A stretch of DNA of 64,000 bases from a virus (IMGVR_UViG_3300050821_001527:1-64000), one strand, 5' to 3'; positions 6,368 through 24,807 are shown, counted from the stretch's first letter. Made by a program: numbers and translations. Notes: generated by a model from the letters alone, not told the origin.

Positions 6368-6428
6368 GGGGTAATAATAGCAGAACCGGGGAGCGTGTCA
6401 AGATATTTATTGAATTAAATTAACGACG

Positions 6429-7133: not shown

Positions 7134-7151
7134 GGGAATAGAATAGCGGGA

Positions 7152-7706: not shown

Positions 7707-7758
7707 ATTGATATACTAGCCTGTTAGACGGCTGGCGTCAAGGATTATTTTGCATCCA

Positions 7759-7824
7759 TAACCTGTTGATTACCAGCCACTTGCGCGGGACACCCCGCGT
7801 AAGTCCCTCTCCGAAAGGAACTTA
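7759..7824. repeat. double-dyad element, copy 3
   Basis: TAACCTGTTGATTACCAGCCACTTG-cgcgggacaccccgcg-TAAGTCCCTCTCCGAAAGGAACTTA (25+16+25). Confidence 0.9.
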
Positions 7825-7833
7825 CGTTGGCTG

Positions 7834-8049
7834 TTAAATGAAGCGCGAGAGGAACGCCCCCACCCACGCGGGCCAGCTAAAGGCCACAAAGAAGAACACC
7901 GCAACCAGAGCGATGAACCTGACAACGCGGGAACGGTTGCCGAAGTCGCGTTTTTCGAGGGAGTTGATTGCCGTGAATCCGACCACCGCGCCGATGAGCA
8001 GGTAAAACAGGGCGAAGGCGAACAGGATGGGGAATAGGTATTGTGTCAT
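7834..8049 (-). CDS. small membrane protein
   Basis: two hydrophobic helices, 71 aa. Confidence 0.65.
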   Translation of the reverse strand: MTQYLFPILFAFALFYLLIGAVVGFTAINSLEKRDFGNRSRVVRFIALVAVFFFVAFSWPAWVGAFLSRFI

Positions 8050-8243
8050 AAGGTTTCGAGGTTAAGGTTCCAATTTTGTTTGGCGAATCTGCGTAGCGGG
8101 TGCAATCCACGTTCGCCGACATGGAAAGAGTAAAACGGTTGCTTGGTATCGGGCGGGTAGATTTTGACCGTGGACGCCTTTGTATAGTCCAAACGGAATC
8201 CCTGCCGTGCGAGTGCTTTTAGTAACTGCGGAACGTCTTTCAT
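8046..8243 (-). CDS. HicA-like fold small protein
   Basis: QLLKALARQGFRL..TVKIYPP..SFH.GERGLHPLRR resembles the HicA alpha-beta-beta-beta-alpha pattern; canonical GSH replaced by KAS. Confidence 0.45.
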   Translation of the reverse strand: MKDVPQLLKALARQGFRLDYTKASTVKIYPPDTKQPFYSFHVGERGLHPLRRFAKQNWNLNLETL

Positions 8244-8282
8244 GGTGTAAGAGTATAGGGCTATTGCCCGGTTGTCAAGGGA

Positions 8283-8792
8283 TTAAATGTCCAGATAGAG
8301 GCAATCGTAATCCACGACAATCGGCAACAGCGAGCCATCCAGAATCAACAGATTCTCGCGGTGCAAATCCCAGACGGTAATGCCCGCCTCCTCACACCTT
8401 TTGACGATTTCGCTTTTCATGGCGTAAAAGAATGTGTCATGTTCGCAACTCCAACCAAGCTGGATTGCCTTGACGAAACGGCAGACCAGCGCATACCCCT
8501 TGGAATGAATCCAGTAAACCTTGGGCGTCAGTGTGCGGTAAACGGGATTGTCCAACAGGGGCTTGACTTTCTCGTTAAACGCCGTGCTGCTGATTTTGAT
8601 GACGAAACGGCCAATGCGGTAGCAGTAGCTATAGGCACCGCTGGCAAAGAATTTCAACCCCTGACTTTCCAGCCATGCGCGGGCAGTGTCTTTGAAGTTG
8701 TATGTGTCCTCGATTTGAATGGATTCGAGATGCGCGATGATGCGCTTAATCCGAAGGCGGGTGCTGGTTCCGGGCGTAGTGTTGTTATTCAT
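8283..8792 (-). CDS. small protein-kinase-like (ePK/APH fold) protein
   Basis: FFASGAYSYCY (Gly loop), FVIKI, WDLHRENL (catalytic loop), VVDYD (DFG-like). Confidence 0.8.
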   Translation of the reverse strand: MNNNTTPGTSTRLRIKRIIAHLESIQIEDTYNFKDTARAWLESQGLKFFASGAYSYCYRIGRFVIKISSTAFNEKVKPLLDNPVYRTLTPKVYWIHSKGYALVCRFVKAIQLGWSCEHDTFFYAMKSEIVKRCEEAGITVWDLHRENLLILDGSLLPIVVDYDCLYLDI

Positions 8793-8859
8793 GTGAAGAT
8801 ATTAGTTGAATAATCGCACCGTGTCAAGGGAATATTTTGCATAAATGAATCAATCTTCA

Positions 8860-8925
8860 TAAGTGTTTGAGGCGCAGGCACTTGCGGCGGGCCACCCGCG
8901 TAACCCCCTGAGTTGCAGAGAGTTA
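8860..8925. repeat. double-dyad element, copy 4
   Basis: TAAGTGTTTGAGGCGCAGGCACTTG-cggcgggccacccgcg-TAACCCCCTGAGTTGCAGAGAGTTA (25+16+25). Confidence 0.9.
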
Positions 8926-8954
8926 CGAAACTAGCGCCGTCACGACCTACGCCG

Positions 8955-9120
8955 TCCCCTCCGGTGTTATCCAGAGGACGGGAGTTGCACCCGTCTTATC
9001 ACGACAATTTCTTTAAATTGGTGGAGACTATCGCGCCCCGCTACGCCGGATTTTTACCGGAAGGTGCTACATTTTGGCTACAGTCTTGAAACATTTTGCC
9101 TACAGTCCGCACTCTCAACA
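8955..9120 (-). ncRNA. candidate tRNA-like / degenerate tRNA RNA
   Basis: own promoter; GCGGACUGUAG...UAGUCUCCACCA (9110-9019) and a separate T-arm-like hairpin GACGGG-UGCAACU-CCCGUC (8995-8977); not an intact cloverleaf. Confidence 0.4.
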
Positions 9121-9270
9121 TCTATACTCTAGCAGATTATTTTAATCTGTCAAGAAAAATCATGCCGTATTATCGTTTAATGTCGCCCCGGCTGGGGATT
9201 GTCCTAGCGCATTATGTATAAGGGGACAGCCCATGCTCGCTTCAAAGTCCCGCCACATTCTCTAGGTCAG

Positions 9271-9388
9271 ACAGTTGGTTTTTGTGACCGCGTTTAACCG
9301 CCTGTATCGAGTCCCTACTGACCGATTACCACGCCACGCGAGGCATCATTGTTCATCTACTTACCCGATACCACCCATAACCAACTAT
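9271..9388 (-). ncRNA. candidate structured rod-like ncRNA
   Basis: promoter TTGACG-N16-TAGTAT with no ORF behind it; nested stems AUAGUUGGUU/AACCAACUGU and GUAUCGGGU/ACUCGAUAC. Confidence 0.5.
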
Positions 9389-9428
9389 AAAGATACTAAC
9401 AGATTTGCCCGGAACGTCAAGAACTATT

Positions 9429-10118
9429 TTAAACTTTCTCAACTGTCGGCTTGAGCCATATCCCGCGCTCACCCAACAGGCCGAACAAATCAAATTCATC
9501 CAGCAAGCGCAGAGCCTTGCCCGTGTCAGCGGCGAACATCTTCAAGGATTCTTCGCGGATACGCTCGGTTGAGACGTTCGCAAAGTGCTTGTAATTACAG
9601 CAGAACCCGTGCATGGCATTGGCCGTATTGCGCTCAATCCTGAATCCCTTGGTAATGGCGAAACGGATTGCACGAATCACGCGCAACGCATCTTCCCCGA
9701 AACGCACACGCGGGTCGCCTACACAGCGAATCAGTCTGTCCGTAATGTCTTCAATCCCCTTGTGCGGGTCGAGAACATCGAACTCGTTCGCGGCGTTTAC
9801 GGCAATCGCGTTCATCGTGAAGTCACGACGGGCGAGGTCATCAAAGATTGTGCCAATCGTGACGCTCTCAGGGCGGCGACCGTCGGTATAACAGCCATCC
9901 TTACGACAAAGGACGTAATCTGCCGAGCCGAGTGCGGGGACGTTGGCACGTATAGTGAAAAATTCGGGTGTTTCGAGGAAAATCTTTCCCCCGAGCGCAA
10001 TAATCGTTTCGCGCATGGAATCAAACGAAGGGGCTTCAACGGCGAAATCCATATCCTTGGACTTGACGCCCAAGAATGTATCTCTCACACTTCCGCCCAC
10101 TCTGAAAATCTTATTCAT
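9429..10118 (-). CDS. cca: tRNA nucleotidyltransferase (CCA-adding enzyme, class II), C-terminally short
   Basis: VGGSVRDTFLG..KDMDF, RKDGCYTDGRRP loop, DLARRDFTMNAIA, EDALRVIRAIRF; lacks the poly(A) polymerase GRRF signature. Confidence 0.88.
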   Translation of the reverse strand: MNKIFRVGGSVRDTFLGVKSKDMDFAVEAPSFDSMRETIIALGGKIFLETPEFFTIRANVPALGSADYVLCRKDGCYTDGRRPESVTIGTIFDDLARRDFTMNAIAVNAANEFDVLDPHKGIEDITDRLIRCVGDPRVRFGEDALRVIRAIRFAITKGFRIERNTANAMHGFCCNYKHFANVSTERIREESLKMFAADTGKALRLLDEFDLFGLLGERGIWLKPTVEKV

Positions 10119-10150
10119 TCCACTTATCCTATGGGATTAGGCCCGAACTG

Positions 10151-10378
10151 TCAAGGATTTATTCGCTTGGTGTAGGATTTGATATAGGGTTTCAGGTCAG
10201 AGGCAATAGACGCGGCAATCGCGTCAACTTCACCTTGACCGGCAGAATGGCCGCGTTCGTAGGCAGCGAATTCAATGTATTGAATGAATTCGGGCGGCAA
10301 GTCGTGATATTCAGCCTGCTTCCGTGCTGCGGCGTCCGCGTCCGCTTTGTCAACCATCGCTTGTAATTCTTTAGTCAT
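10151..10378 (-). CDS. hypothetical protein
   Basis: 75 aa, own promoter. Confidence 0.65.
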   Translation of the reverse strand: MTKELQAMVDKADADAAARKQAEYHDLPPEFIQYIEFAAYERGHSAGQGEVDAIAASIASDLKPYIKSYTKRINP

Positions 10379-10418
10379 GCTTAGAAGATAGCAGAATTTG
10401 CACCATTGTCAAGAACTA

Positions 10419-10484
10419 TATCTCGTTGTCCATCAAGGACTTGCGCGGGTGCCCCTGCGTAACCCGTTGTGGCTCAGTGGGTTA
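10419..10484. repeat. double-dyad element, copy 5
   Basis: TATCTCGTTGTCCATCAAGGACTTG-cgcgggtgcccctgcg-TAACCCGTTGTGGCTCAGTGGGTTA (25+16+25). Confidence 0.88.
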
Positions 10485-10497
10485 CGAGGTTTGCCGC

Positions 10498-10830
10498 TTA
10501 CAGCGAGAACCAGTAGCGTTTGCTGTGGCCGGTGCCGGTGAACTTGATTGCGCCGGAATTGCGGAGTTGCTTGACAGTTTGGGTGAGGGTATGGCGGGTG
10601 TAGGTGGTATAGCCGGATTCCTGAATTGCCGTTTCGATTTGCGTGACCGTCATCCCTTGGGCCTTGCGGGTGGGGAGGACATTAACGACGAGCTTTTGCA
10701 GCGGGAACGGATTGCGGGGCAACTGGCAGTTGGTCGCCCCCACCGTCCGATAGTTGGCGCGGAGATTGTCGGCGATGGTGAGGATTGCGGAGATGACGTT
10801 GGAATTCAGACCGAGCGTGTTGTTTTTCAT
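10498..10830 (-). CDS. winged-helix DNA-binding protein (putative)
   Basis: GMTVTQIETAIQESG..RHTLTQTVKQLRNSGAIKFTGTGHSKRYW follows a wHTH helix-helix-wing pattern. Confidence 0.55.
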   Translation of the reverse strand: MKNNTLGLNSNVISAILTIADNLRANYRTVGATNCQLPRNPFPLQKLVVNVLPTRKAQGMTVTQIETAIQESGYTTYTRHTLTQTVKQLRNSGAIKFTGTGHSKRYWFSL

Positions 10831-10942
10831 ATTCGTTATTTTTCTTCTGTCAGGCGTGATTGCCTTTGATGTAGAAAGAATAACAGAATTTTGTTTTGAG
10901 TCAAGGTATTTATCGAATTTTATTGAAGTATTTTTCGAGACA

Positions 10943-11008
10943 CAAGTTGTTGACTATCAAGGGTTTGCACGGGACGCCCCGCGTAACCTCCTCTGTGGCA
11001 AGGGGTTA
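10943..11008. repeat. double-dyad element, copy 6
   Basis: CAAGTTGTTGACTATCAAGGGTTTG-cacgggacgccccgcg-TAACCTCCTCTGTGGCAAGGGGTTA (25+16+25). Confidence 0.9.
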
Positions 11009-11029
11009 CGGGGTTTGTTTCAGCAGGTT

Positions 11030-11257
11030 CTATGCCACCTTGCGGGCCACGCTCTTGATGTCAGCAAGGTAGGTGTCGCCATATTCCCCGTCCGGGCACA
11101 TGGGGGACGTGACGAAACAAAAGACGCGGGCGAAGGGATTCGCGGCCTCTTTGTCAGGGGCTTGATAGTGTTTCAGGACTTTCCACGTCCACGAACCGTT
11201 AGACCACGTTTCGTAAGGATTGGAAACCGGGCGGGTTTTGGCACATTCGTTTTTCAT
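11030..11257 (-). CDS. hypothetical phage protein
   Basis: 75 aa, WTWKVLKHYQ..FCFVTSP..EYGDTY; own promoter. Confidence 0.7.
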   Translation of the reverse strand: MKNECAKTRPVSNPYETWSNGSWTWKVLKHYQAPDKEAANPFARVFCFVTSPMCPDGEYGDTYLADIKSVARKVA

Positions 11258-11295
11258 GGTGAGAGGATAGCTGTTTAGTTACGGGTTGTCAAGGT

Positions 11296-11724
11296 TTATT
11301 TCACACTCCAAAGCGGGACGGTGAAGTCATCAGCGAATTTGTGTTTGTTAGACCACGATTCACGCGACAGGAAAACGCCGACACATTGAGCCGTGGCGAT
11401 GCGTTTGGTGACTTCCTCACGGATGATTCGCAGCGTGTTACCGGAGCAAATCAGGTCATCAATGATGATATATCGCTCGCTGGATTCAACCCCTTCAAGA
11501 TTGGAGCCGAAATGGTTGCCGTCATCCTTGCGAACCATGAGCATATTCTTTTTGAGCTTCATGGCGATGATGGGGGCAATCAACGCCCCGGACATTCCAC
11601 GAAAGGCGATTGCATCAAACTCAACTTCGGAATCCTTAATGAGCTTGACCAGTTTGGTTACGGTTTCCGGCAACCGGGCAACGTCAACCAGATGTTTCAG
11701 ATAGTCAGAACGAATGGCGGGCAT
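11296..11724 (-). CDS. type I phosphoribosyltransferase-domain protein
   Basis: IAFRGMSGALIAPIIA..VRK..YIIIDDLICSGNT PRPP-binding loop; start set at MPAIRSD. Confidence 0.8.
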   Translation of the reverse strand: MPAIRSDYLKHLVDVARLPETVTKLVKLIKDSEVEFDAIAFRGMSGALIAPIIAMKLKKNMLMVRKDDGNHFGSNLEGVESSERYIIIDDLICSGNTLRIIREEVTKRIATAQCVGVFLSRESWSNKHKFADDFTVPLWSVK

Positions 11725-11728
11725 AGTA

Positions 11729-11899
11729 TTAGGAGAGTTGGTTTTCGATTTCGACAATCACGTTGCGGTGCTGGGAAATGCCAACGTGTTTTTCCATCAC
11801 CAGAAAACGCTCGATGGAACCATAGGACACGCGGCCAGTGAAGACCTTGCGGTATTTTACGCCGCCCAATTTGTAAACCAGAATGGTGTTTTTATTCAT
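11729..11899 (-). CDS. hypothetical protein (56 aa, not in track)
   Basis: MNKNTILVYKLGGVKYRKVFTG...; promoter 6 nt upstream. Confidence 0.6.
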   Translation of the reverse strand: MNKNTILVYKLGGVKYRKVFTGRVSYGSIERFLVMEKHVGISQHRNVIVEIENQLS

Positions 11900-11942
11900 G
11901 TGTAAAGAGTATCGGAATTGTTTGCGGTTGTCAAGGAAAATT

Positions 11943-12293
11943 TCAGCCGTAAATTACTTCACCAAAGGCGGCGAGTTGGGCAAAGGCGTCGAAGTCGAAG
12001 GCGTCAGACTGACAAAGCCAGTTGTCCCAATCTTCCCAGTTGGCACTGAAAGGCGGTTGCGTCAAACCCTTGGGCCATTTGGTAGGGTCGAACAGCAGCG
12101 GGAACGCGGCAATCAGTTTGGCCTTGTCCAAGTCATAGGTTTTGCCGTCCTCCGTGTCCACAAATTCAAATTCCATCTTCTTATAATCCCAGCCACGGCA
12201 TTTCAGCGTCATACCGGCTTCGGGGTGGTTGTCCATGATGGCGCGGACAATCTTTTCAACGGTTTCGTCAGGGATGACTAAGGTAATATTCAT
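11943..12293 (-). CDS. hypothetical protein
   Basis: 116 aa, acidic, own promoter. Confidence 0.7.
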   Translation of the reverse strand: MNITLVIPDETVEKIVRAIMDNHPEAGMTLKCRGWDYKKMEFEFVDTEDGKTYDLDKAKLIAAFPLLFDPTKWPKGLTQPPFSANWEDWDNWLCQSDAFDFDAFAQLAAFGEVIYG

Positions 12294-12329
12294 GTGTAGA
12301 GATTAGCGGATTGATTACCGCTTGTCAAG

Positions 12330-12641
12330 TTAAAAATCTTGGTTAATTGTGTTCAAATCGGCTTGCCAGCGGGCTAACCTGTCGCCTGCTTTTCTCAGGG
12401 CAATGCAAGCGGCCATGTGGGGATGTTTATGGGTCGCCTGAAATGATATGGCTTCGCCCAAGCTAACCGAAAAATGAAAATCAGTATCGTCATACAAACT
12501 GCATGAGATATGACACTTGCCCCTTGTCCAAGTCGCGTTGACGTTGCTGTCATCGGGCAATTTAATGCAGTTCATTTGCCACCCGTCGCCCAAAGTGGCA
12601 CGAATGCGGCTATCACGTTTCATGGCAGTTTCCAATGTCAT
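12330..12641 (-). CDS. hypothetical protein
   Basis: 103 aa, own promoter. Confidence 0.65.
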   Translation of the reverse strand: MTLETAMKRDSRIRATLGDGWQMNCIKLPDDSNVNATWTRGKCHISCSLYDDTDFHFSVSLGEAISFQATHKHPHMAACIALRKAGDRLARWQADLNTINQDF

Positions 12642-12681
12642 AGGGATAGAGTATCAGAGTTTAAGGGATTGTCAAGCTTTC

Positions 12682-12747
12682 TAAGTCGTTGACTATCAGG
12701 CACTTGCGCGGGGCGTCCCGCGTAAACAGTTGACTATCAACAGGTTA
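12682..12747. repeat. double-dyad element, copy 7
   Basis: TAAGTCGTTGACTATCAGGCACTTG-cgcggggcgtcccgcg-TAAACAGTTGACTATCAACAGGTTA (25+16+25); supplies the stop of 12745..13029. Confidence 0.92.
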
Positions 12748-13029
12748 CGCTCTCAACTGCGCCCAAACTTCGTGGGCAATCTTGATGGACTTGGCATAGA
12801 TTTTACTCTTGTGGGCCGCACCGGAGCAATTTTCATTCACCCATTGAATATCCTGCGCGTCAAGCATCAGGCAAACTTCATCCATGATTGCCGCCTCAAT
12901 CGTGCTTTCAATCCACAGGGCGAAGTTGTCAACGTGATTGACCAGCGCACGGAGTTTGGCTTCGGGATGTTTCAGAGCAGCTTTCTTGCCAATCTGCATC
13001 AACTGGGCTTCGTATCTTTCAGCGTTCAT
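12745..13029 (-). CDS. hypothetical protein
   Basis: 94 aa, helical. Confidence 0.65.
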   Translation of the reverse strand: MNAERYEAQLMQIGKKAALKHPEAKLRALVNHVDNFALWIESTIEAAIMDEVCLMLDAQDIQWVNENCSGAAHKSKIYAKSIKIAHEVWAQLRA

Positions 13030-13147
13030 TTTGACCTTTGTGTTTGGGGTGGCGGGTGTAAGCCTTTTTGCTTTTGACGATACGGGAAGCGGGATTGAAG
13101 TCCCATTGTTTCCGAACCGATTTTATGATTGAGATTTGCTTACTCAT
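13019..13147 (-). CDS. small basic peptide resembling alternative ribosome-rescue factors (ArfA/BrfA-like), 42 aa, not in track
   Basis: MSKQISIIKSVRKQWDFNPASRIVKSKKAYTRHPKHKGQNER; promoter TTGACA-N16-TACACT 6 nt upstream. Confidence 0.45.
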   Translation of the reverse strand: MSKQISIIKSVRKQWDFNPASRIVKSKKAYTRHPKHKGQNER

Positions 13148-13184
13148 AGGCAAAGTGTATCAGGTTTCGTCAGGTTGTCAAGGG

Positions 13185-13220
13185 AAAAGAAAAAACCCGT
13201 CACGCTCCGAACGCGACGGG
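13185..13220 (-). terminator. intrinsic terminator
   Basis: CCCGTCGCG-TTCGGAG-CGTGACGGG followed by TTTTTTCTTTT on the minus strand. Confidence 0.75.
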
Positions 13221-13241
13221 TCAACTACGGCCTAATTTCGC

Positions 13242-13610
13242 TTAGGCGGCGGCAGGTTGTGCGGTGAGTGTTTTGGCGTGGGTCTTGTAGCCTTCCGGCG
13301 ACAGAACCGCGAAACCGGAGAAACGAACCTTGCGGACGCGGGAAAAGCGGAACGTCAGATATTCCTTGTCGCGGCTCGTATCAATCGCGGTAAACACCGC
13401 ATTGCCCGCCGCCGAAGTCCACTTGTGGGTAACGGGGTGGCCGATGACGTTGTAACGCTGGACGGGAAGATTCGGGTGGCGGGAATCAGCCGGGGCGTAG
13501 GTCACGCGGTAGGTGGGAATGAAACGGTAGCCATTGGCGAGCATGGTGCCGAGAACGGCGAGGCCGATGATGAGCAGGAGGATGGAACTGATTAGGAGGT
13601 TTGGATTCAT
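13242..13610 (-). CDS. membrane-anchored protein with WYL-like motif
   Basis: N-terminal TM helix; FTAIDTSRDKEYLTFRFSRV resembles the WYL C-terminal motif. Confidence 0.5.
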   Translation of the reverse strand: MNPNLLISSILLLIIGLAVLGTMLANGYRFIPTYRVTYAPADSRHPNLPVQRYNVIGHPVTHKWTSAAGNAVFTAIDTSRDKEYLTFRFSRVRKVRFSGFAVLSPEGYKTHAKTLTAQPAAA

Positions 13611-13687
13611 GTTATTTTATTGTCTTTCGTTTGTTGTTTAACTTATGTGAAAAGATTATCAGGTTTGGCAACCGTTGTCAAGGGATT

Positions 13688-13897
13688 TCAGTAAGAACCA
13701 TACCCGAAAACAGTAACCACTTCGCCCACACGGTTTTCACAGTCCGCGCCGTTTGCGGCGTTTTCCTTGGTGATTCTTCGATTGGTCTGGAAATTGATTG
13801 TGCGTGGTTCACCGCCGCCATTCCAACCGTCCAAAATCATTACGTCACGGTCAGCGGGGAGTTTTTGTAAAAGTTCGATAAGGATTGATGCTTTCAT
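13688..13897 (-). CDS. hypothetical protein
   Basis: MKASILIELLQKLPADRDVMI, common phage small-protein N-terminus. Confidence 0.65.
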   Translation of the reverse strand: MKASILIELLQKLPADRDVMILDGWNGGGEPRTINFQTNRRITKENAANGADCENRVGEVVTVFGYGSY

Positions 13898-13971
13898 GCG
13901 TTAAAGATAGTCGAAACGCCACGACCAAACAAGGAAACAATCTCGCTATAGTTATTCACATTCCCTCCACT

Positions 13972-14005
13972 TGGCACGGCTCCCGCTAAAGCACAATCCA
14001 TGCCA
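13972..14005. promoter_or_regulatory. head-to-head pair of sigma54-type -24/-12 motifs
   Basis: TGGCACGGCTCCCGCT (+, 13972-13987) and TGGCATGGATTGTGCT (-, 14005-13990), 2 bp apart. Confidence 0.7.
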
Positions 14006-14009
14006 TCCA

Positions 14010-14074
14010 TAAGCCCTTGACTATCAACGACTTGCGGGGTTCCCCCGCGTAACCCATTGGTAATCAACGAGTTA
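14010..14074. repeat. double-dyad element, copy 8
   Basis: TAAGCCCTTGACTATCAACGACTTG-cggggttcccccgcg-TAACCCATTGGTAATCAACGAGTTA (25+15+25). Confidence 0.92.
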
Positions 14075-14083
14075 CGGGGATGA

Positions 14084-14320
14084 TTAAGTTTGCTGAATGC
14101 GCCTGATTAGGGCGGCTAAGGCGCGTCCCTCAAAGTTCTCAATCGGTTCGCGCAGACTACGCCCGTCAGTTGTCGAATGATTGCACTTGTCGGCGAAGTC
14201 GGCGAACAGCAGGGGCTTTGCCCAGTCTTCGGCAAAGTTTTTTCTGTCCCATCCGTCCGGGTCAAGAATGTGAATGCCGAGCAACTCACACCACGTTTCA
14301 GGCTGTAGGTAGATTTTCAT
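14084..14320 (-). CDS. hypothetical phage protein
   Basis: WCELLGIHILDPDGWDRKNF..W motif. Confidence 0.7.
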   Translation of the reverse strand: MKIYLQPETWCELLGIHILDPDGWDRKNFAEDWAKPLLFADFADKCNHSTTDGRSLREPIENFEGRALAALIRRIQQT

Positions 14321-14401
14321 TTGTGTTTCCTCAGTTCGTAAAGGAAGATTGCGCCAAAGATTAGCGCAACCCCTAGCGACAGGTAAAAGTAAAGCATACG
14401 T

Positions 14402-15079
14402 TTAGGCGACTACAAACCCAGTCGCATCAGCTTTCGCCTTGCCCTTCATAGACAGGCCGACAATGACACCGCGAGCGTCCAGAAAACGCAAATCGTTTTC
14501 GTCCCCGGAAACAACCGGCTTGCCCAAGTAAGACGCGGGCAATTCATTTCGGAAAACAACCGCGATGTTTACATTTTGCGCGGCCAGCTTTTCAACGTCA
14601 GCCTGATTGCTTTCCGAACGGGAAAAGGTCAGGTTATAGTTTGCGGGCAACTTGCCAGCGGCGAACATGCCAGCACGAAACGGATTTTTCGTGTAATCGT
14701 AAAAGTTGACCGTGGGGAATTTGTCCATGAATCCGAACCTTTCCCAAGCAACATCAGAGAGGACATTAAGGCGGATTGCCAGCTTTTTACCAAGCTTGCC
14801 AGCCTTGCGGACACCCGCCGCAATTTCCTTTTCCAGCATGGCGAGAAATTCCGCTTGGCGCTCGTTAAAGAATTTGGCTTTCGCAATACGAGCCGCTTGC
14901 ACGTTGGGGAATACGCCCATGCCGGAAGTATTCAGGCAGGCAGCAGCGCAACCCGCAGAGGCATGGGGGCAAAGATTGCGCCCGGACAAATTGAACGGCG
15001 CAAGCGACAAGCCAAGCGTAAAGTAGCCTAGCGACTCGCCTTTAAGCAGTTTGGTGTTATTGGGGGATAGTAATTTCAT
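14402..15079 (-). CDS. Gp88-family phage protein (radical SAM-like Cys motif)
   Basis: LSLAP..NLCPHASAGCAAACLNTSG..IRLNVLSDV..FYDYTK..NYNLTFSRSE..GDENDLRFLD..GLSMKG. Confidence 0.8.
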   Translation of the reverse strand: MKLLSPNNTKLLKGESLGYFTLGLSLAPFNLSGRNLCPHASAGCAAACLNTSGMGVFPNVQAARIAKAKFFNERQAEFLAMLEKEIAAGVRKAGKLGKKLAIRLNVLSDVAWERFGFMDKFPTVNFYDYTKNPFRAGMFAAGKLPANYNLTFSRSESNQADVEKLAAQNVNIAVVFRNELPASYLGKPVVSGDENDLRFLDARGVIVGLSMKGKAKADATGFVVA

Positions 15080-15112
15080 GTGGGGAGAGTGTAGGGGATT
15101 GCGCGGCCAATG

Positions 15113-15325
15113 TCAAGAGTAAATTACCGCATTGTGCTTTTCCAGAGCCGGGGCAATTTCGGCGTGAATGGTGGCTTGCAATTCCGCCATTGCCAACCGA
15201 CGGCGAACGACTTCACAGCGCAGGCGGATACGGTCAGAAACCGACTGGCGGTAATTCATGGGGATGCTCAAATTTGCCTTGACAAGCTTGGCGATGTTCG
15301 CGGGAGAGTTGATTTCAGTTTGCAT
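15113..15325 (-). CDS. hypothetical protein
   Basis: 70 aa. Confidence 0.55.
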   Translation of the reverse strand: MQTEINSPANIAKLVKANLSIPMNYRQSVSDRIRLRCEVVRRRLAMAELQATIHAEIAPALEKHNAVIYS

Positions 15326-15422
15326 ATATTGTTATACTGTTATTGTTTTATTGACTGCGTAAGTATGGGGCGAAAATGTTAGACGGTCAAGGGTTTTTTG
15401 AATTATTTTTTCAGGCAAATAT

Positions 15423-15481
15423 TGGCATGGCTCCTGCTAGAGCAATTCGTGTGCCAACCAGCCGCAGCATTTATCGTGCCA
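15423..15481. promoter_or_regulatory. three sigma54-type -24/-12 motifs
   Basis: TGGCATGGCTCCTGCT (+, 15423-15438), TGGCACACGAATTGCT (-, 15456-15441), TGGCACGATAAATGCT (-, 15481-15466). Confidence 0.72.
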
Positions 15482-15485
15482 TGCG

Positions 15486-15550
15486 TAAGTCGTTGTGGCT
15501 CAGGCACTTGCGCGGGGGCACCGCGTAACTCGTTGATAATCAACAGGTTA
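15486..15550. repeat. double-dyad element, copy 9
   Basis: TAAGTCGTTGTGGCTCAGGCACTTG-cgcgggggcaccgcg-TAACTCGTTGATAATCAACAGGTTA (25+15+25); supplies the stop of 15548..15715. Confidence 0.92.
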
Positions 15551-15715
15551 CAGATTACAGAAGTGTTCGGGGAACTGGCTTTCAATTTGAAACCTCGCCG
15601 CATCCCTAGCCAAGAAACCGGGGCGGGCCTGAGCGCGGGGATGTTGCATGTAGTAGTTGATTTCACGGCGCACACGGCGCACGAAACGAATTTGCGATGA
15701 TGTTGGGCGGTTCAT
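15548..15715 (-). CDS. hypothetical protein (55 aa, not in track)
   Basis: MNRPTSSQIRFVRRVRREINYY...HFCNL. Confidence 0.55.
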   Translation of the reverse strand: MNRPTSSQIRFVRRVRREINYYMQHPRAQARPGFLARDAARFQIESQFPEHFCNL

Positions 15716-15719
15716 AGGA

Positions 15720-15962
15720 TTACGCGGCGAAGGGATTGGGGATTGCCTGCAATTTCTGTTCCAGTTTCCAGATGGTTTTGCGGGTCTTGTTTATCTTCTT
15801 GCGGTTGGGCTTGTCGTCACCCAACATCCAGCGCAGATTGTTTTGCGCCCATGTGATTGCGAAACCCAGTTTCTTGCGGGCTTCCGTCAATTCCAGTATC
15901 CGCATGGTTGCGGGGCTTGGCGCGTAGTGAAAGGTCGAATCGGTAAAGGGGTCGCGTTTCAT
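15720..15962 (-). CDS. hypothetical basic protein
   Basis: 80 aa. Confidence 0.6.
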   Translation of the reverse strand: MKRDPFTDSTFHYAPSPATMRILELTEARKKLGFAITWAQNNLRWMLGDDKPNRKKINKTRKTIWKLEQKLQAIPNPFAA

Positions 15963-15970
15963 GTGATTGA

Positions 15971-16180
15971 TTAGTTGAGTCCGCAGGCCGCGAAAAAACG
16001 AGCTTTGTTAAAACGGGGGTTGTCGGCAAGGGCGACTTTCGCAACCATTTCGGCGGCGAATCGGGCGTTGTCGTCCGCAATGTTCATGTCAATGGTTTTG
16101 ATGCCACCGGGAGCGGGTTGGGCCGCGTCAACTTGCGCTTTGATAATCCGGGCGAATTCGATGAAATGTTTCTTTGTCAT
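15971..16180 (-). CDS. conserved phage hypothetical protein
   Basis: MTKKHFIEFARII...DNPRFNKARFFAACG; start set by the promoter 6 nt upstream. Confidence 0.7.
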   Translation of the reverse strand: MTKKHFIEFARIIKAQVDAAQPAPGGIKTIDMNIADDNARFAAEMVAKVALADNPRFNKARFFAACGLN

Positions 16181-16211
16181 GGTGATAATGTAGTTGATTA
16201 TTGGTTGCGTG

Positions 16212-16424
16212 TCAAGGTTTATTTTCTTCGATTTTTTCAACCATTACCCAGCTTGTGTTTTCCAGCGCGGCGTTAATGTCGTTCAAGCGCGATTGGTGCA
16301 GGGTAGCAAGGATATTGAGATTAGAAGCCTTGCAATCGTTCACTACCCCTTCGCACTCGCATTGCGCGATGATTAGGGCGGAACGGATTTGCCGGAACTG
16401 GTCTTCTGTCATCTGAATTTTCAT
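16212..16424 (-). CDS. hypothetical protein
   Basis: 70 aa, own promoter. Confidence 0.6.
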   Translation of the reverse strand: MKIQMTEDQFRQIRSALIIAQCECEGVVNDCKASNLNILATLHQSRLNDINAALENTSWVMVEKIEENKP

Positions 16425-16462
16425 GCCTCAAGTATCGGTTAAAAAAATGCGGTTGTCAAGGT

Positions 16463-16657
16463 TTATTTCACGTAGTATTCGCTAATGAATTCCCCGTCGC
16501 ATTCAACGCGGGAACCACAGCCCCAGCCCAAAAGCTTATAGGCCATTCCCAGCGCGGCATTCAAAGCACTCCGCACGGGGCAAGCGGTTTCGGCGAACTC
16601 GGAAGCGGAAAACTCGAAAACTTGGCTTTTGCTTATTACTTTGTAAGTCTTATTCAT
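16463..16657 (-). CDS. hypothetical protein
   Basis: 64 aa, own promoter. Confidence 0.6.
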   Translation of the reverse strand: MNKTYKVISKSQVFEFSASEFAETACPVRSALNAALGMAYKLLGWGCGSRVECDGEFISEYYVK

Positions 16658-16725
16658 GGTCTAAATCTAGTCCTTTTTGGGATAATGTCAAGGATTATTT
16701 TTGCGATTTATTACGATTTTTGCGT

Positions 16726-16741
16726 AGCAAGTTACGTGCCA
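16726..16741 (-). promoter_or_regulatory. sigma54-type -24/-12 motif
   Basis: TGGCACGTAACTTGCT, full consensus, 4 bp from element 10. Confidence 0.75.
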
Positions 16742-16745
16742 TGCG

Positions 16746-16810
16746 TAAGTGCCTGATTATCAACGGGTTGCGCGGGCCGTCCGCGTAAGTGCCTCTGTCA
16801 CAAGCACTTA
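16746..16810. repeat. double-dyad element, copy 10
   Basis: TAAGTGCCTGATTATCAACGGGTTG-cgcgggccgtccgcg-TAAGTGCCTCTGTCACAAGCACTTA (25+15+25). Confidence 0.92.
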
Positions 16811-16820
16811 CACTGGCGAT

Positions 16821-17084
16821 TTACCAGATGCCATCCAAGGCGCGTTCCTGCGCGGAAACCCCGTAGTAATCCCCATCACCCTGCGGGCCACAGCACCCAC
16901 AGCAGGGCGCGTCCTCACAGCGGCCAGTCCTGCGCTTATGCTCCGTGCGCCAGTCGTCGGCCTTGGCGGGCTTGGGTATGCCTGTAACACAGGTCTTGCA
17001 GCGGCCACCATGCTGGCGGGCATAGGTGCGTGATGTGAGTGCGCCACAGGCGCAACGTATGGTGAATTGACGATAATTACTCAT
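16821..17084 (-). CDS. Cys-rich hypothetical protein (CEDAPCCGCC motif)
   Basis: MSNYRQFTIRCACG..CKTC..RCEDAPCCGCCG; start reassigned from the track's 17168. Confidence 0.7.
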   Translation of the reverse strand: MSNYRQFTIRCACGALTSRTYARQHGGRCKTCVTGIPKPAKADDWRTEHKRRTGRCEDAPCCGCCGPQGDGDYYGVSAQERALDGIW

Positions 17085-17244
17085 TGCAGTAGTCGTTGGC
17101 TTCGTTCTGGTTGTAATCGGCGAGGTCATCCGAACCGTCACCACAGCCGGGGAAGCCAGCGCCATCATAGGGCTGTTCTTCGGGCGTGACGTGTGCGAGC
17201 CGGTGTTCGGGGTTCTGCGGGTCTAAGTCAGAGTTATTGTTCAT
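17077..17244 (-). CDS. highly acidic 55-aa peptide (not in track)
   Basis: MNNNSDLDPQNPEHRLAHVTPEEQPYDGAGFPGCGDGSDDLADYNQNEANDYCNE, 13 D/E versus 1 R; own promoter. Confidence 0.65.
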   Translation of the reverse strand: MNNNSDLDPQNPEHRLAHVTPEEQPYDGAGFPGCGDGSDDLADYNQNEANDYCNE

Positions 17245-17307
17245 GGGTATAGAGTAGCACGTATGGCTAACGTGTCAACAAGTATATTTGCATCCCAATC
17301 ATCACAT

Positions 17308-17469
17308 TGGCACGATGTATGCTATGCGTATTGGCGTGTGTAAGTCGTTGTGTATCAACGGGTTGCGCGGGGGAGCCGCGTAAGTGCTTGGTAATCAACG
17401 ACTTATGACTCGTATCACAGCAGGATGTATGCCAACCACGCTCCGAACGCGATTGGCACACTATATGCT
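17308..17469. promoter_or_regulatory. three sigma54-type -24/-12 motifs flanking element 11
   Basis: TGGCACGATGTATGCT (+, 17308-17323), TGGCATACATCCTGCT (-, 17434-17419), TGGCACACTATATGCT (+, 17454-17469). Confidence 0.68.
17341..17405. repeat. double-dyad element, copy 11
   Basis: TAAGTCGTTGTGTATCAACGGGTTG-cgcgggggagccgcg-TAAGTGCTTGGTAATCAACGACTTA (25+15+25). Confidence 0.92.
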
Positions 17470-17636
17470 TACTCAACCATCGTCAGGTTGGACGTTGCAA
17501 CGCGCTTCTGTTGTCCGTCAGGCAGTAAGATGGTAGATTGACCGTTGCGCGAATGGGCAACCACGACAACCAAGATTTCAACGGCCAGCTTGCCCGCCTT
17601 GTAGTTCGCCATTCCTTGTATGTGGTTCATGGTCAT
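17469..17636 (-). CDS. hypothetical protein (55 aa, not in track)
   Basis: MTMNHIQGMANYKAGKLAVEILVV... Confidence 0.5.
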   Translation of the reverse strand: MTMNHIQGMANYKAGKLAVEILVVVVAHSRNGQSTILLPDGQQKRVATSNLTMVE

Positions 17637-17640
17637 GGTG

Positions 17641-18075
17641 TTAGTCCAGTGAACGGCCAGCTTTGCCGTCCGTCACATAGAACGGCTCGCCAGTCATGGG
17701 TTTAATGTCAATCCTGTCCGCATTGTGGAAAGCCGCGAACGTCAACGCCGCTTGGCGATGCTCGAAAGACTGCATTGTCTGGACGGGATTGGGCAAACCG
17801 TATTCCGTCCATTGGCTCAGGTTCGCATAACGATTAACGCACACATGCCACACGTTGCCGATGCACTCGGTAACGTTCGCACGGGTTTGACCAGCAACGC
17901 CCGCTTGGGGATTGCTCCAAACATACTCACCCGTTGCGGTGGTGATGACAACCGCCACGCCCCGCTTGTCGCACTTCTCCGCAAACTTCATGGCCGCGTT
18001 CAAGCTCTCGCGGGGAGTGGGGGCGATAAACTCCAATTCAATCCCTTTCGTGGTTGCAATGTAATTCTTATTCAT
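17641..18075 (-). CDS. hypothetical protein (first gene of the leftward early block)
   Basis: MNKNYIATTKG...; promoter TTGCCA-N16-TATCTT 6 nt upstream. Confidence 0.65.
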   Translation of the reverse strand: MNKNYIATTKGIELEFIAPTPRESLNAAMKFAEKCDKRGVAVVITTATGEYVWSNPQAGVAGQTRANVTECIGNVWHVCVNRYANLSQWTEYGLPNPVQTMQSFEHRQAALTFAAFHNADRIDIKPMTGEPFYVTDGKAGRSLD

Positions 18076-18125
18076 GGATACAAGATAGCACACGCAAGGG
18101 GCATGGCAAGGGATTTCTTCAACTA

Positions 18126-18150
18126 TCTTCTGTTGATAATCAACGATTTA
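18126..18150. repeat. single arm (half copy) of the double-dyad element
   Basis: TCTTCTGTTGATAATCAACGATTTA. Confidence 0.6.
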
Positions 18151-18576
18151 CAGACCCCCTACCCTATTAACGGAAAAAAAACCATTTCGGGACGCGCAAA
18201 AGGGCTGGGGGGTGGTTAATACATAACGTCACCCCTTAAAATAACCAACCCTTTCTGAAATCTACCCCCTCCAATCCTCTCCCCTAATCATCTTGCCTCC
18301 CTGATGCTTCTCTTGACCCCTGAAAAATACGGGCGGGTATGTTTTCTCCGGGTAATTTGTTGAAATCGCGGGCTTCCGGCAGTTTCCGGCAATGAATTTC
18401 ACCCAAAACCCCAACAATATTGGCTTTCCATCACTCTTTCCGGCAGAATCCGGCAAGTCGAATGAGCGCCGGATGTTTCCAGATGGTGCCGGATACTATA
18501 AAATTCGATTTATTGATTAAAATATCACCCTCCCGAACAAAAACTTGTTGAAATCAGTCTCCCTCCTAGTATAAGT

Positions 18577-18831
18577 ATGGCCGAAGTCACGAAAACTTGC
18601 AACTCTTGTTTCCAACCCAAGCCCCTTTCCGAGTTCAGTCATCAAAAGGGAACGCCTGACGGTTTGAAATATCGCTGCAAGACGTGCGACAAACGCTACT
18701 ACGACTCTTACTACGCAAAACAATCGGCCCATATCATGTCAACCGTTCGAGCGTGGCAGCAAAAGAATCCCGATGATGTCTCAAGGCACAAAGCCAACTA
18801 TCGTCGCAAGCAATCCCAGAAAAAAGTGTAA
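18577..18831 (+). CDS. Zn-finger fragment of HNH endonuclease type (no nuclease domain)
   Basis: KTCNSCFQPKPLSEF..DGLKYRCKTC, like the N-terminus of 4141..4767. Confidence 0.6.
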   Translation: MAEVTKTCNSCFQPKPLSEFSHQKGTPDGLKYRCKTCDKRYYDSYYAKQSAHIMSTVRAWQQKNPDDVSRHKANYRRKQSQKKV

Positions 18832-18832
18832 T
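18826..18832 (+). promoter_or_regulatory. putative late promoter motif GTGTAAT
   Basis: 8 nt before ATG 18841. Confidence 0.6.
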
Positions 18833-18840
18833 TATCGAAT

Positions 18841-21800
18841 ATGAGGCTCTTAGCAAATTTCGGCAAAAAGGTTTTTAGTGTTCTGGCAATGGTTATGTTG
18901 CTGGCTATCTCCGTTCAAGCTGGCCCTTGGTCTTCTTATCCAACTTACAGCAACCCTGATGGGTCTGACACCTTCTTGGTGCAAGGCTCAGGGACAATGA
19001 AGCAGATAACGGCTGCGAATATGGCCGCTTGGTTTGGGACTCAACTCATCGGCGTTGACCCAAGCAATGTTAAAAACGGCACCCATAACTCGATTACCGG
19101 GGGCTATGGCAACACCACTTACAACGACAATACGGTCATTGCGGCTGGTTTGAACAATACCGCCAATGGTGCGGGTGACTTTATTGGCGGCGGCTATAAC
19201 AATACCACAACCGGAGACAATGCCTCAGTTGTAGGCGGCACTCAAAATACAGCAAGCAATCCGGGTTCCGTGGTTGGCGGGGGATGGCTCAACGTTGTCG
19301 TAGGAAACAATGGCGGTGTATTTGCCGGTTACAACAACCAAACAGCGAATAATTCTGACGCTTCCGTGATTGTTGGTGGGGCCGGAAACTACATTTACGG
19401 TTCGGTCAATTCTGCGATTTTGGCCGGTTTTGAGAATGAAGTGGATACCTTGGGAAGCGTCATCCTCGGAGGCGATGGGAATTTTGTTGCTGGAAACAAC
19501 GCTGGGATTGGAATTGGGTTTGACAACTCAACCCGTGGAGATTCTTCCTTCGTTGCCGGTGGCGAACAGAATATTATTGACGGCAGTTCTCCGTCAGCTT
19601 TCATCGGAGGGGGCGTCGGGAATCAGATTACCGACGATGGGATAGATTCTTTCGTTGGGGGCGGCTATCAAAATACCGTTAAATCAGTCGCCAGCAGTAT
19701 CGTAAATGGGTCGCAGAACACCATTGATGTATCTTCTATCAATTCGTTCATTGGCGGCGGGCAAGGCAATGATATTCGTGGCAACCACGCGGGCGACTCT
19801 ATCGTCGGCGGCTTAAACAATTATATCCAGCAAAACTCGGGTAGTTCCCCCGACAATGCCTTCATCGGGGGCGGCGATAACAATGGTGCGGAAAATCAAA
19901 ACGTCGGTATTGTCGCGGGTATTAATAATACGGCGTCGGGTGTCAGTTCAATCATCGGGGGCGGAACAGTCAATACCATCAACACTTCTTCCGATAACGC
20001 AGGCATCTTGGCTGGATATAGCAATGAAATTGGGGATTCCAGTGCTAATTCAGACTCGTCCTTCATCGGCTCTGGTTCGCAAAACACCATTCGTTCTCAA
20101 AACGCCGGTATAGGTTCCGGCGTCCAAAACGAAGTATATCCCAACGCCGATGGTTCTTTCATTGGAGCCGGTAATGTCAACTCCATCCAAAACGGCGTCA
20201 ATCAATTCATCGGCGGCGGCTCAGGCAATTTGGCTCATAATGATGATGCCACCGTGGTTGCGGGTCTTAACAACTCAACCTATGGAAAAAGCAGCTTCAT
20301 CGGTGGCGGCGTCCAGAACCAAATTCAAAACGACTCTGAAAATGCCGTTATCGTCGGAGGATATGGAAACACTCTTGGTCAGGATGGGGCATGTGATAGT
20401 TCAATCATTGGAGCCGGAACAGCCAACAACCTTTCCAGCGGTTCTATCAACAGTGCAATTATGGCTGGATGGAACAATACCCTTTCCGGCGTCGGAGCTT
20501 TCATTGGAGCCGGAGGAAGCCACTCTATCTATGGTAATGGTAGTTTTGTCGGTGCCGGATGGGACAACGTTGTCGAAGCCGATAACAGCAGCATTGTGGC
20601 GGGTTACGGCAACCTGATTACTACTGGTGTGAATGGTGCCATCTTAGCTGGTAAGCAGAATAACATCTACAGCGGAGACAACGACATTATCGCAGGCGGC
20701 TTCGCCAACCAGATTAATAGCTCGTCCCCAAATGCGGGTATTTTCGTCGGCACCAATAACGTAATCAACAGTGGCTATAACGAAGCCATTTTGGGCGGAC
20801 ATGATAACACGGCGGCTGACGATTCAAGCTCGGTAGTTGGCGGAAGCTTTAACGTCGCGGAAGGCAATGCCGCCACAGTCTGCGGCGTATCCAACAGTGT
20901 CTATGGAGGAAGCTCCTTCGCCTCTGGTTACGGCAACGTTATTTCGAGCGACCATGTTCCGGGTTTTGGAAGTTCAAGTTCCATTTCGGGTAGCTCAAAC
21001 GTAATTGACGGAGCAAACTGCGTGGTAGAAGGAGCATTAAACTATGCAGGCGTCAACAACAACATTCACGTCGGCGGTTTGAACAGCGCAGGTTTTGGCG
21101 ACACTTCATTTGTGTTCGGCTATCAATCTTATTCTGATTTGGGCGCGACCAACGCTTTCGCCTTGGGAGTCCAAGCCTCGGCCTACAAGACCAATTCCTT
21201 TATTTGGGCTTCCCAGCCGGAAGAAAACTGGGACGAAAAATCGTTCAGAATCAACGCGAGCGTGGCTGATGTCGTCCTTAACAACGACTATCCCAGCCAT
21301 TCATCTTCAAGCCCCGAGTTTGATATTATGAGTGTGGGAAGGGCTAATGCCCAACCGACCTTAACCATTGGTCAGGGCGCTTCTCTAATGACCAGCTTCA
21401 CCATTTCAGGACTTGCTAACAGCTTGGCGGCTTACAACGGTGTTTATACGAACAATCAGTTGAGTGAATTTTCCCTTGTTGCTGATATGTCCTTCAATAT
21501 CTATTATCTAACCACGGATAGTTCCAAGACAATTAGTTGGACTGGCTCTGCTTGGATAGTGGGCGACGGAAGCTGTTTTGCGACATCTGGTTCGACTACT
21601 TTAAGCACCGTCAGAAACACGACGGATGATGGAGCGCATTGGGTTGACGATTGCAGCGGGGCGAATGGAGAAATTGTTCTGACTCCGGGCAGCTTCCACA
21701 CTTATCTATTAAGAAACTCAGACGGTTTGAATACTTCCATGTCGTTCAATTCTTCCACTCATTCCATTACGGCTAAGAACGGCGGTTCGGATACGGCGGT

Positions 21801-22984: not shown

Positions 22985-23023
22985 CCGGACATAGTGTGTA
23001 TTTGGGGATTATATCCCCTCCCT

Positions 23024-23743
23024 ATGAAACAAAAACGCCGCGACGACTCACCATACGTTTATCAGGGCAAAAAATTCGGGGGTTCCCTTCAATTCAGGGA
23101 TAAAATAAAGTGGACTGACAAACAAAAAAAATTCATAGACCTAGCCACAGACAAGAACACCAAGATTCTTTTTGTCAAAGGGCCAGCAGGTTCCAGCAAG
23201 TCCATTCTCTCCGTTTATACCGCACTCAAGCTATTGGACGAGAAACGTATCTCTGAAATCATGTATGTTCGTTCCGCCGTCGAAAGTTCTGAGTCGAGCA
23301 TGGGATTCTTACCCGGTTCGGCAGACATGAAAATGGCGTTTTACAACATGCCGTTCTTGGACAAACTTAACGAGCTTCTGATTTCTTCTGACGTATCCGC
23401 ATTACAAAAACAGGGCAGCATATCCTGCTTCTCCCCAAATTTTGCAAGGGGGGTGAGTTGGAACGCCAAGGCTATCATCATGGACGAAGCTCAAAATTCC
23501 ACGCGTAAGGAAATCGTCACAATTTTGACCCGTTTGGGACAATTTTCCCGTGGATTCATATTAGCCGACCCGTTACAAACAGACTTAAACGGTAGGGCGG
23601 GTGGATTTGAAGACCTATATTCAATTTTTGATAACGAGGAAAGTCGTATGCAGGGTATCCATGTATTCGAGTTCGATGAAAACGATATTATGCGTTCAGA
23701 ATTAGTCAAGTTTATCGTGCGTAAATTGACCCACCACACTTAA
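23024..23743 (+). CDS. phoH: PhoH-family ATPase
   Basis: KGPAGSSKS, VRSAVES..MGFLPG, ARG..IIMDEAQN..ILTRLG..LADPLQTDL; GTGTATT motif at 22996. Confidence 0.9.
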   Translation: MKQKRRDDSPYVYQGKKFGGSLQFRDKIKWTDKQKKFIDLATDKNTKILFVKGPAGSSKSILSVYTALKLLDEKRISEIMYVRSAVESSESSMGFLPGSADMKMAFYNMPFLDKLNELLISSDVSALQKQGSISCFSPNFARGVSWNAKAIIMDEAQNSTRKEIVTILTRLGQFSRGFILADPLQTDLNGRAGGFEDLYSIFDNEESRMQGIHVFEFDENDIMRSELVKFIVRKLTHHT

Positions 23744-23747
23744 TCGT

Positions 23748-24765: not shown

Positions 24766-24807
24766 TCTGAATTATTTTAGTTAGAACATGAGGGTTCTAT
24801 AATAATT

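Follow-up and report, generated by a model that had tools for sequence, protein, structure and literature searches.

Clustered sigma-54-type boxes beside double-dyad elements in the early region of an uncultured soil phage

Sigma-54-type boxes adjoin palindromic elements in the early gene block

The stretch analysed here, hereafter the window, comprises positions 1-64,000 of IMGVR_UViG_3300050821_001527, a viral record of 202,882 bases from an uncultured soil phage, of which it is the first 64 kb; the record has a CheckV completeness of 91%, and terminal repeats were not found in it. Leftward of the switch region at ~18.2 kb, the window carries an early block of small minus-strand gene cassettes, and eleven palindromic double-dyad elements, each ~66 bp long, lie between many of them. 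Nine 16-bp boxes (13972-17469) that resemble the -24/-12 promoter element of the bacterial sigma factor sigma-54 (RpoN) stand beside four of these elements, and the identity, the possible reader and the possible role of these boxes are the subject of this study.

All nine boxes that had been listed in an earlier note on this DNA were recovered at the same positions and on the same strands (Table 1), and they are held in four intergenic gaps, i.e. 13898-14083, 15326-15547, 16658-16820 and 17245-17468. The two head-to-head pairs described there, 13972/13990 and 15423/15441, each with a 2-bp gap, are both real, and so is the fixed distance of three minus-strand boxes to the left arms of elements 8, 9 and 10: boxes 13990-, 15466- and 16726- end 4 bp before the TAAG of the arm, with the junction CGTGCCATGCGTAAGT being identical over 16 bp at elements 9 and 10. 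A second fixed geometry was found in boxes 17419- and 11022-, both of which lie 12 bp off a right arm and face into the element, a placement that would put a sigma-54-type start 2 nt short of that arm. Box 11022- is a tenth one, located beside element 10943-11009; the nine boxes do accompany the four full elements nearest the switch, as had been claimed, but with this tenth one the boxes are not strictly confined to these four. Three looser or coding-region matches are present besides (7578-, 12596+ and 14657-).

An inward-facing unit, made up of a dyad element, single or double, between a plus box and a minus box, was observed at window 17308-17434 and recurs at L262 720-4170 of the relative G055; the face-to-face pairs resemble this unit minus its element.

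Table 1. Sigma-54-type boxes, neighbouring double-dyad elements and sigma-70-type promoters in the window
Feature	Coordinates	Strand	Predicted +1	Remarks
Tenth box	11022..11037	-		12 bp right of element 10943-11009; aims into element; straddles stop codon
Sigma-54-type box TGGCACG-N5-CGCT	13972..13987	+	~13998	Left member of face-to-face pair 1; aims at element 8
Sigma-54-type box	13990..14005	-	~13979	Right member of pair 1; 4 bp from element 8 left arm; aims at gene 13688-13897
Double-dyad element 8	14009..14075	.		IHF-core-like words at 14022, 14062
Sigma-54-type box	15423..15438	+	~15449	Left member of face-to-face pair 2; aims at element 9
Sigma-54-type box, perfect TGGCAC-N5-TTGCT	15441..15456	-	~15430	Right member of pair 2
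Sigma-54-type box	15466..15481	-	15455	4 bp from element 9 left arm; junction CGTGCCATGCGTAAGT
Double-dyad element 9	15485..15551	.		IHF-core-like words at 15526, 15538
Sigma-70-type promoter TTGACA-16-TAGATT of gene 16463-16657	16664..16691	-		Downstream of box 16726-
Sigma-54-type box, perfect TGGCAC-N5-TTGCT	16726..16741	-	~16715	4 bp from element 10 left arm
Double-dyad element 10	16745..16811	.		IHF-core-like word at 16758
Sigma-54-type box	17308..17323	+	~17334	Left of element 11; aims into element
Double-dyad element 11	17340..17406	.		Convergent boxes on both flanks; IHF-core-like words at 17353, 17393
Sigma-54-type box	17419..17434	-	~17408	12 bp right of element 11; aims into element; +1 2 nt before arm
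Sigma-54-type box	17454..17469	+	17480	Abuts stop codon of gene 17469-17636, antisense to that gene; element 11 upstream
Further similar sigma-70-type promoters	16431-16459, 16187-16215, 15362-15390, 15088-15116, 18082-18109			Promoter caller

The boxes are enriched and follow the sigma-54 consensus outside their detection anchor

The pattern TGGCAYR-N6-GC matched 13 times in the window, compared with 1.76 on average and at most 5 in dinucleotide-shuffled sequences, and 15 times across the whole 203-kb genome, with 13 of these in 7.5-17.5 kb. A background scan with the stricter TGGCAYR-N5-TGCT bore out this clustering, as all ten genomic matches fell into the same interval against ~0.4 expected by an arithmetic with equal base frequencies. 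When TGGCAYR alone was the anchor, 13 of 20 words within 4-18.3 kb had a GC at exactly the GG-N10-GC spacing, versus 2 of 55 elsewhere in the genome, and a GC shifted by 1-2 bases was seen in no more than one case per stretch. GG-N10-GC is present in all nine boxes and in 11022- as well.

Compared with the published sigma-54 consensus TGGCAC-N5-TTGCT (PMC12316311), two of the nine boxes are perfect. A free-position test was then made on 88 distinct boxes of the phage and its relatives anchored on TGGCA-N8-GC only, and yielded Y at -27 (86%), C/T at -21 (94%), G/A at -20 (97%), T at -14 (91%) and T at -11 (88%), with position -15 being weaker (T, 43%); hence the extended consensus YTGGCACG-N4-TTGCW is followed at positions that lie outside the detection anchor. 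The 5-nt spacers and the flanks vary between box copies, so that the sigma-54-critical positions alone are kept, and nothing conserved was found downstream of the GCT in the boxes. The sigma-54-type identity proposed in the earlier note is therefore supported at the sequence level, by the invariant spacing, the two perfect boxes and the free positions on consensus.

Boxes are conserved beside the same switch in related phages

Homologues of the window genes at 22994-29806, with identities of 46-65%, were found in two relatives, G056 (a 37-kb record with loci L269 and L273) and G054 (L224). These homologues comprise the PhoH-like ATPase, the zinc-ribbon protein, the sigma-like protein, the unknown protein and the large terminase, of which both order and orientation are kept. 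Once oriented by the shared genes, G056 and G054 have their boxes on the early flank of the same switch region. Strict boxes numbered 33 in G056, 22 in G054 and 34 in G055, compared with none of the control pattern in each; the relatives pack these 22-34 boxes into 3-14 kb, at densities up to one per 130-400 bp. In all three, the boxes adjoin the same type of double-dyad element, and the 12-bp geometry, with its predicted +1 2 nt before the arm, recurs in G056. Conservation of the -12 GC in relatives had been set beforehand as the test that could refute the sigma-54 identity, and the GC was kept as well as the TGGCA, occurring at the right offset in 16/17, 19/24, 26/28 and 18/26 of the relatives' TGGCAYR words.

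The sole early gene with a family match encodes a GP88-family protein (14402-15079, -; PF17338, E 4.6e-43). Its neighbours by homology are 50-63% identical and mostly box-free, two complete genomes (140 and 154 kb) being among those without boxes, and L007 is the only one that retains an element plus a box. No closer relatives were obtained by further search, with the GP88 scan of metagenomes reaching at most 63% identity; with the region and two other box loci as queries, blastn matched none of 50,697 phage records, and tblastn retrieved only distant matches from mixed hosts with a terminase and none with a second protein. A scan with a 14-mer of the junction yielded nothing beyond chance matches.

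A tandem arrangement was observed in L224 (7330-7471) of G054, where five perfect-consensus boxes follow on the same strand, the first four starts being 26-28 bp apart and the fifth 46 bp on. At this spacing, holoenzymes could not all bind adjacent to each other.

The mirrored box pair is virus-specific

The exact mirrored form, namely a box, 2 bp and an inverted box, has 82 occurrences, spread over at least 74 viral contigs whose G+C ranges from 32 to 61%, while the same scan over 596 Gb of bacterial and archaeal genomes yielded only four, all in metagenome-assembled genomes (MAGs), with ~2 expected by chance. The mirrored arrangement is thus virus-specific. When the gap was left free at 0-12 bp, 93 distinct pairs were obtained with gaps of 1-8 bp and a mode of 3, and none at 0 or 9-12 bp; such a variable gap argues against a single rigid dimeric reader. 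Since the spacers of the two arms are unrelated, the mirrored pair is not a hairpin either. In 27 records with mirrored pairs, boxes cluster within 1-3 kb, the control pattern occurring 0-1 times per strand per record. Unrelated phages bear boxes without double-dyad elements. The densest unrelated case observed is L033 1-6000, on a 14-kb viral contig of 55% G+C, with ~20 boxes in both orientations.

No shared regulator was found among box-bearing phages

Neither sigma-54 domains (PF04552 and PF04963) nor the enhancer-binding ATPase domain (PF00158) were found in this phage, so the search for a bacterial enhancer-binding protein suggested in the earlier note found none by this domain; PF00158 was equally absent from 44 other box-bearing viral records. 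An all-against-all BLAST of twelve genomes, i.e. this phage and eleven other complete or near-complete box-bearing ones, identified DNA polymerase A (10/12), large terminase (6/12), portal protein (4) and SNF2-type helicase (4) as the widest common families, and no regulator common to the twelve at the BLAST level. The simplest reader would therefore be a host protein that is universal and sequence-invariant, and sigma-54 fits every informative position.

Most early genes have their own consensus sigma-70-type promoter (TTGACA, 16-17 nt, TAnnnT), six of which were called by the promoter tool in this stretch (Table 1), and the start codon lies ~6 nt past the -10 hexamer; leaderless mRNAs are pervasive. 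At gene 16463-16657, the predicted +1 of box 16726- is 22 bp upstream of the -35 hexamer. Deinococcus-Thermus is one leaderless-rich phylum without sigma-54. Actinomycetota is another example, and pervasive leaderless mRNAs are typical of phyla lacking sigma-54 (PMC12316311). From the E. coli-type -35/-10 promoters and the IHF-core words we infer only that a proteobacterium-like host may be involved. The CCA-adding enzyme of the phage shows ~40% identity to those of many phyla, and the MAG with the best match carries boxes at chance level only; spanin and lysozyme families were not found in the phage.

Double-dyad elements resemble protein-binding palindromes

The eleven full elements, together with a half element at 18132-18154, span 4889-18154, and their arm sequences recur in the relatives G054, G055, G056 and L007. 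The IHF-core-like word WATCAA-N4-TTR occurs 13 times in 4.5-18.3 kb, in every case inside the arms of a full or half element, compared with 0-2 occurrences of eight control words; genome-wide, it has 31 matches. Relative to the boxes, these words are placed at -49/-89 (13990-), -77/-89 (15466-), -49 (16726-) and -81/-121 (17454+). They belong to the palindrome consensus and are also present in box-free elements. No HU/IHF-family protein is encoded by the phage. The elements may be IHF-bendable architectural sites.

An RNA hairpin reading of the elements was rejected, as covariation in alignment A1 (4886-17409) was no better than that of shuffles, 201 of 500 of which reached its score. The elements have no T-run, and no terminator was called on the gene strand; judged by their sequence, they look like protein-binding DNA palindromes and not RNA hairpins. 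The proposal that they act as enhancers of the boxes fared weakly. The elements do bear IHF-core-like words at -49 and -89 of adjacent boxes. They lie, however, at -30 to -96 and not at the customary -80 to -150, no enhancer-binding protein was found in the phage, and seven of the eleven have no adjacent box, six being without any and element 7 having only a looser coding-region match ~70 bp off. Because of these seven, the elements are not simply box enhancers. Two further candidates were dropped: a general IHF enrichment near boxes (4.7-fold, 152 loci) came mostly from element-bearing relatives and permits no claim for phages generally, and a plus-strand TTGACA-17-TATTGC word aimed at each G056 element was not called by the promoter rule.

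Proposed docking of host polymerase and other readings of the boxes

The boxes may be docking sites for host sigma-54 RNA polymerase that would serve mainly as a sponge or insulator regardless of their orientation, a reading that we put forward tentatively, as quite possible and yet short of probable; that sigma-54 binds the boxes, and that docking prevails over promoting, is what we infer. In the proposed mechanism, the boxes would be docking sites selected for the host sigma-54 holoenzyme or sigma-54 itself, and the phage family would keep their array in the first few kb of the leftward early block, where the boxes adjoin the palindromes that bound the cassettes and precede the sigma-70 promoter that each cassette has of its own. 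With neither sigma-54 nor an activator supplied by the phage, the sites would be held as stable closed complexes, and with ongoing replication of the phage DNA they could titrate sigma-54 or its holoenzyme like a sponge and/or form protein roadblocks, insulating cassettes from one another. Some boxes might be fired by a host activator, but this would not be their main role. Docking is favoured by the antisense boxes, the overlapping pairs, the sigma-70 promoters already there, the density and the virus-specific mirrored form. Namely, four of the nine boxes are antisense to the only genes present and have nothing to express, and the face-to-face pairs overlap, with each predicted start inside the partner box, so that both members are not usable at once.

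Several points weigh against docking. Five of the nine boxes are co-directional with, and upstream of, the next gene, and IHF-core-like words are placed at -49 to -121 of four or five boxes, a classical promoter geometry. The complete genomes of two distant relatives, G047 and G048, have no boxes, so the array is dispensable for that lineage. The leaderless mRNAs of the phage would suit host phyla lacking sigma-54, which is a real risk to any sigma-54 reading. We also know of no phage that has been shown to benefit from sigma-54 titration. The wider proposal, that a large-phage family and many unrelated phages carry dense activator-less sigma-54 arrays, among them the virus-specific mirrored pairs, to soak up or immobilise the host sigma-54 polymerase with the multiplication of the phage DNA, silencing its regulon or making cassette barriers, is rather doubtful on the present sequences. 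If true, the regulon hit would be that of stress, envelope, motility and nitrogen responses, and the arrays would do with DNA what anti-sigma factors do as proteins.

The co-directional boxes would suit working enhancer-dependent sigma-54 promoters, fired by a host activator nearby or from solution and with the double-dyad elements as an IHF-bendable architectural or enhancer module; the first early cassettes, together with antisense or element transcripts, would then be tied to a host physiological signal. The IHF-core-like words upstream of 13990-, 15466-, 16726- and 17454+ and the predicted +1 of 17419- and 11022- just before the element arm, as in G056, agree with such promoters; one sigma-54-like promoter has been mapped in phage YuA (PMC10914365), and activators without a DNA-binding domain exist (PMC3844500). 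We nevertheless consider them unlikely. Beyond the four boxes without a gene to express and the mutual exclusion within convergent pairs, a strong sigma-70 promoter is already present at most genes, which are leaderless and carry no Shine-Dalgarno for a longer leader; the box numbers of the relatives, with tandem copies ~26 bp apart, are far above promoter needs; most elements have no box beside them; no conserved upstream activator site was found at -80 to -150, nor any activator among 45 phage records; and the mirrored form is at chance level in bacterial genomes, where real sigma-54 promoters occur. This last observation would also suit a reader other than sigma-54, i.e. a phage or host DNA-binding protein whose site resembles or mimics the -24/-12 element and which maybe has a divergent RpoN-box-type domain missed by the profiles. 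The host may be sigma-54-free, given the leaderless architecture, an unrecognised regulator could hide among the family-less early proteins, and the fixed 4-bp and 12-bp distances are as in one composite operator. Such a reader is again improbable, since the sigma-54 match reaches positions outside the detection anchor, the boxes occur in phages of 32-61% G+C without a common regulator, and gaps of 1-8 bp plus single and tandem boxes are unfit for a fixed dimer or tetramer. Promoters of the phage's own extracytoplasmic function (ECF)-type factors were rejected, as the box blocks are 7 bp apart and ~16-17 bp between elements are required.

It was also considered that the boxes have no function themselves and form the inverted-repeat ends, or the flanks, of a cassette-boundary module that is mobile or recombines, having spread through the early region along with the double-dyad elements. 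The two junctions identical over 16 bp, the convergent boxes flanking element 11 and the G055 dyad elements like terminal inverted repeats, and the patchiness of boxes among relatives would all be in line with this. We think it very unlikely, as it is hard to reconcile with the retention of only the sigma-54-critical positions amid differing spacers and flanks, a signature of selection on a bipartite site and not of recent copying; same-strand tandem arrays and lone boxes are unlike terminal repeats, and unrelated phages bear boxes without elements. Terminal inverted repeats of a mobile element in the strict sense were rejected, as the spacers differ between copies and between the arms of a pair, and single and tandem boxes are common.

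Comparison with known sigma-54 sites and phage systems

Bacterial RpoN promoters such as glnAp2, nifH and Pu (PMC12316311; PMC3844500) share with the phage boxes the bipartite sequence, the GG-N10-GC and the preferences at -27, -21, -20, -14 and -11; IHF-core-like words are present upstream of several phage boxes. Unlike these promoters, the phage boxes are accompanied by neither an activator gene nor a clear enhancer at -80 to -150. Nearly half of them aim away from genes, they stand in tandem with strong sigma-70 promoters, and they form dense arrays and overlapping face-to-face pairs, the latter being no more frequent than chance in the 596 Gb of bacterial genomes. The orphan or intragenic holoenzyme sites detected by chromatin immunoprecipitation in Salmonella, E. 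coli and Vibrio (PMC3844500; PMC4551910) are likewise consensus-like, in both orientations and without an obvious gene driven, and roles in interference or polymerase holding have been proposed for them (PMC3844500; PMC4551910). The whole Salmonella genome has ~70 sigma-54 sites (PMC3844500), and the bacterial orphans are scattered, at ~70 per several Mb, whereas the phage boxes number 10-34 in a few kb of replicating DNA and are family-conserved.

Two phage systems invite comparison. Sigma-54-like promoters of Pseudomonas phage YuA, as annotated in AM749441, were reportedly described by Ceyssens et al. in 2008. YuA is also lytic-type, lacks its own RNA polymerase and has reported host sigma-54 use (AM749441; PMC10914365), and its promoter P015 from ONT-cappable-seq is sigma-54-like (PMC10914365); calling sigma-54 use by a phage unusual, as the earlier note did, was thus an overstatement. 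Unlike the boxes here, the three annotated '-24/-12' fragments of YuA are single ones in the late structural region, with no arrays or mirrored pairs. The fragments 38392-38570, 40888-41035 and 47152-47312 (L087) contain no plus-strand TGGCA-N7-YGC, the sole one being on the minus strand at 47272. YuA was hence not retained as a close precedent, its annotated fragments having no such word on the gene strand, and by sequence its published sigma-54 assignment appears to be one that rests on weak matches. Cassette boundaries called promoter-early stem-loops (PeSLs) are said to be described for T4-type phages. Like the early block here, they delimit small single-gene early cassettes, each with an early promoter and a palindromic boundary; in contrast to it, PeSLs as described have no sigma-54-type box, and the boundary here is a 66-bp double dyad that lacks a T-run and for which the gene strand gave no terminator call.

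Among bacterial sigma factors, sigma-54 alone keeps the polymerase waiting on DNA for its release by an ATPase. To our knowledge, it has so far had almost no place in phage biology. Full-text searches of the literature gave no description of phage sigma-54 box arrays or mirrored pairs, only the weak sigma-54-like promoters of YuA, and phage use of host sigma-54 via such arrays appears undescribed. New in this study are the offset test, the distribution of gaps, the two fixed box-element geometries and the finding that boxes are kept at family level beside a switch that is itself conserved. A sponge or barrier, if true, would be a new DNA-only takeover of host transcription, and activator-gated promoters, if true, a novel means for a phage to sense the physiology of its host; in both cases, non-promoter sigma-54 sites would gain a function. 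The mirrored pair further raises the structural question of whether two complexes could face each other across 2-5 bp.

Neighbouring genes and expression of the early region

On the late side, the block 22994-29806 encodes, in order, a PhoH-like ATPase, an endonuclease VII-like protein, a zinc-ribbon protein, a sigma-like protein, an unknown 362-amino-acid protein and the large terminase, and is syntenic in L273 and L224. Two clear and one weak ECF-type genes of the sigma-70 family were identified (25277-25960, +; outside the window, 110474-111061, + and 103468-104070, -). For the weak one, L273 and L224 have counterparts of 46-56% identity next to the terminase block. The ECF-type factors probably read middle or late promoters belonging to the phage itself. 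Most early proteins of this stretch have no family match, and no Rfam family matched within 4000-19000. In two soil metatranscriptome runs, 28% of the words of 9000-18900 were found, in low-depth contigs only.

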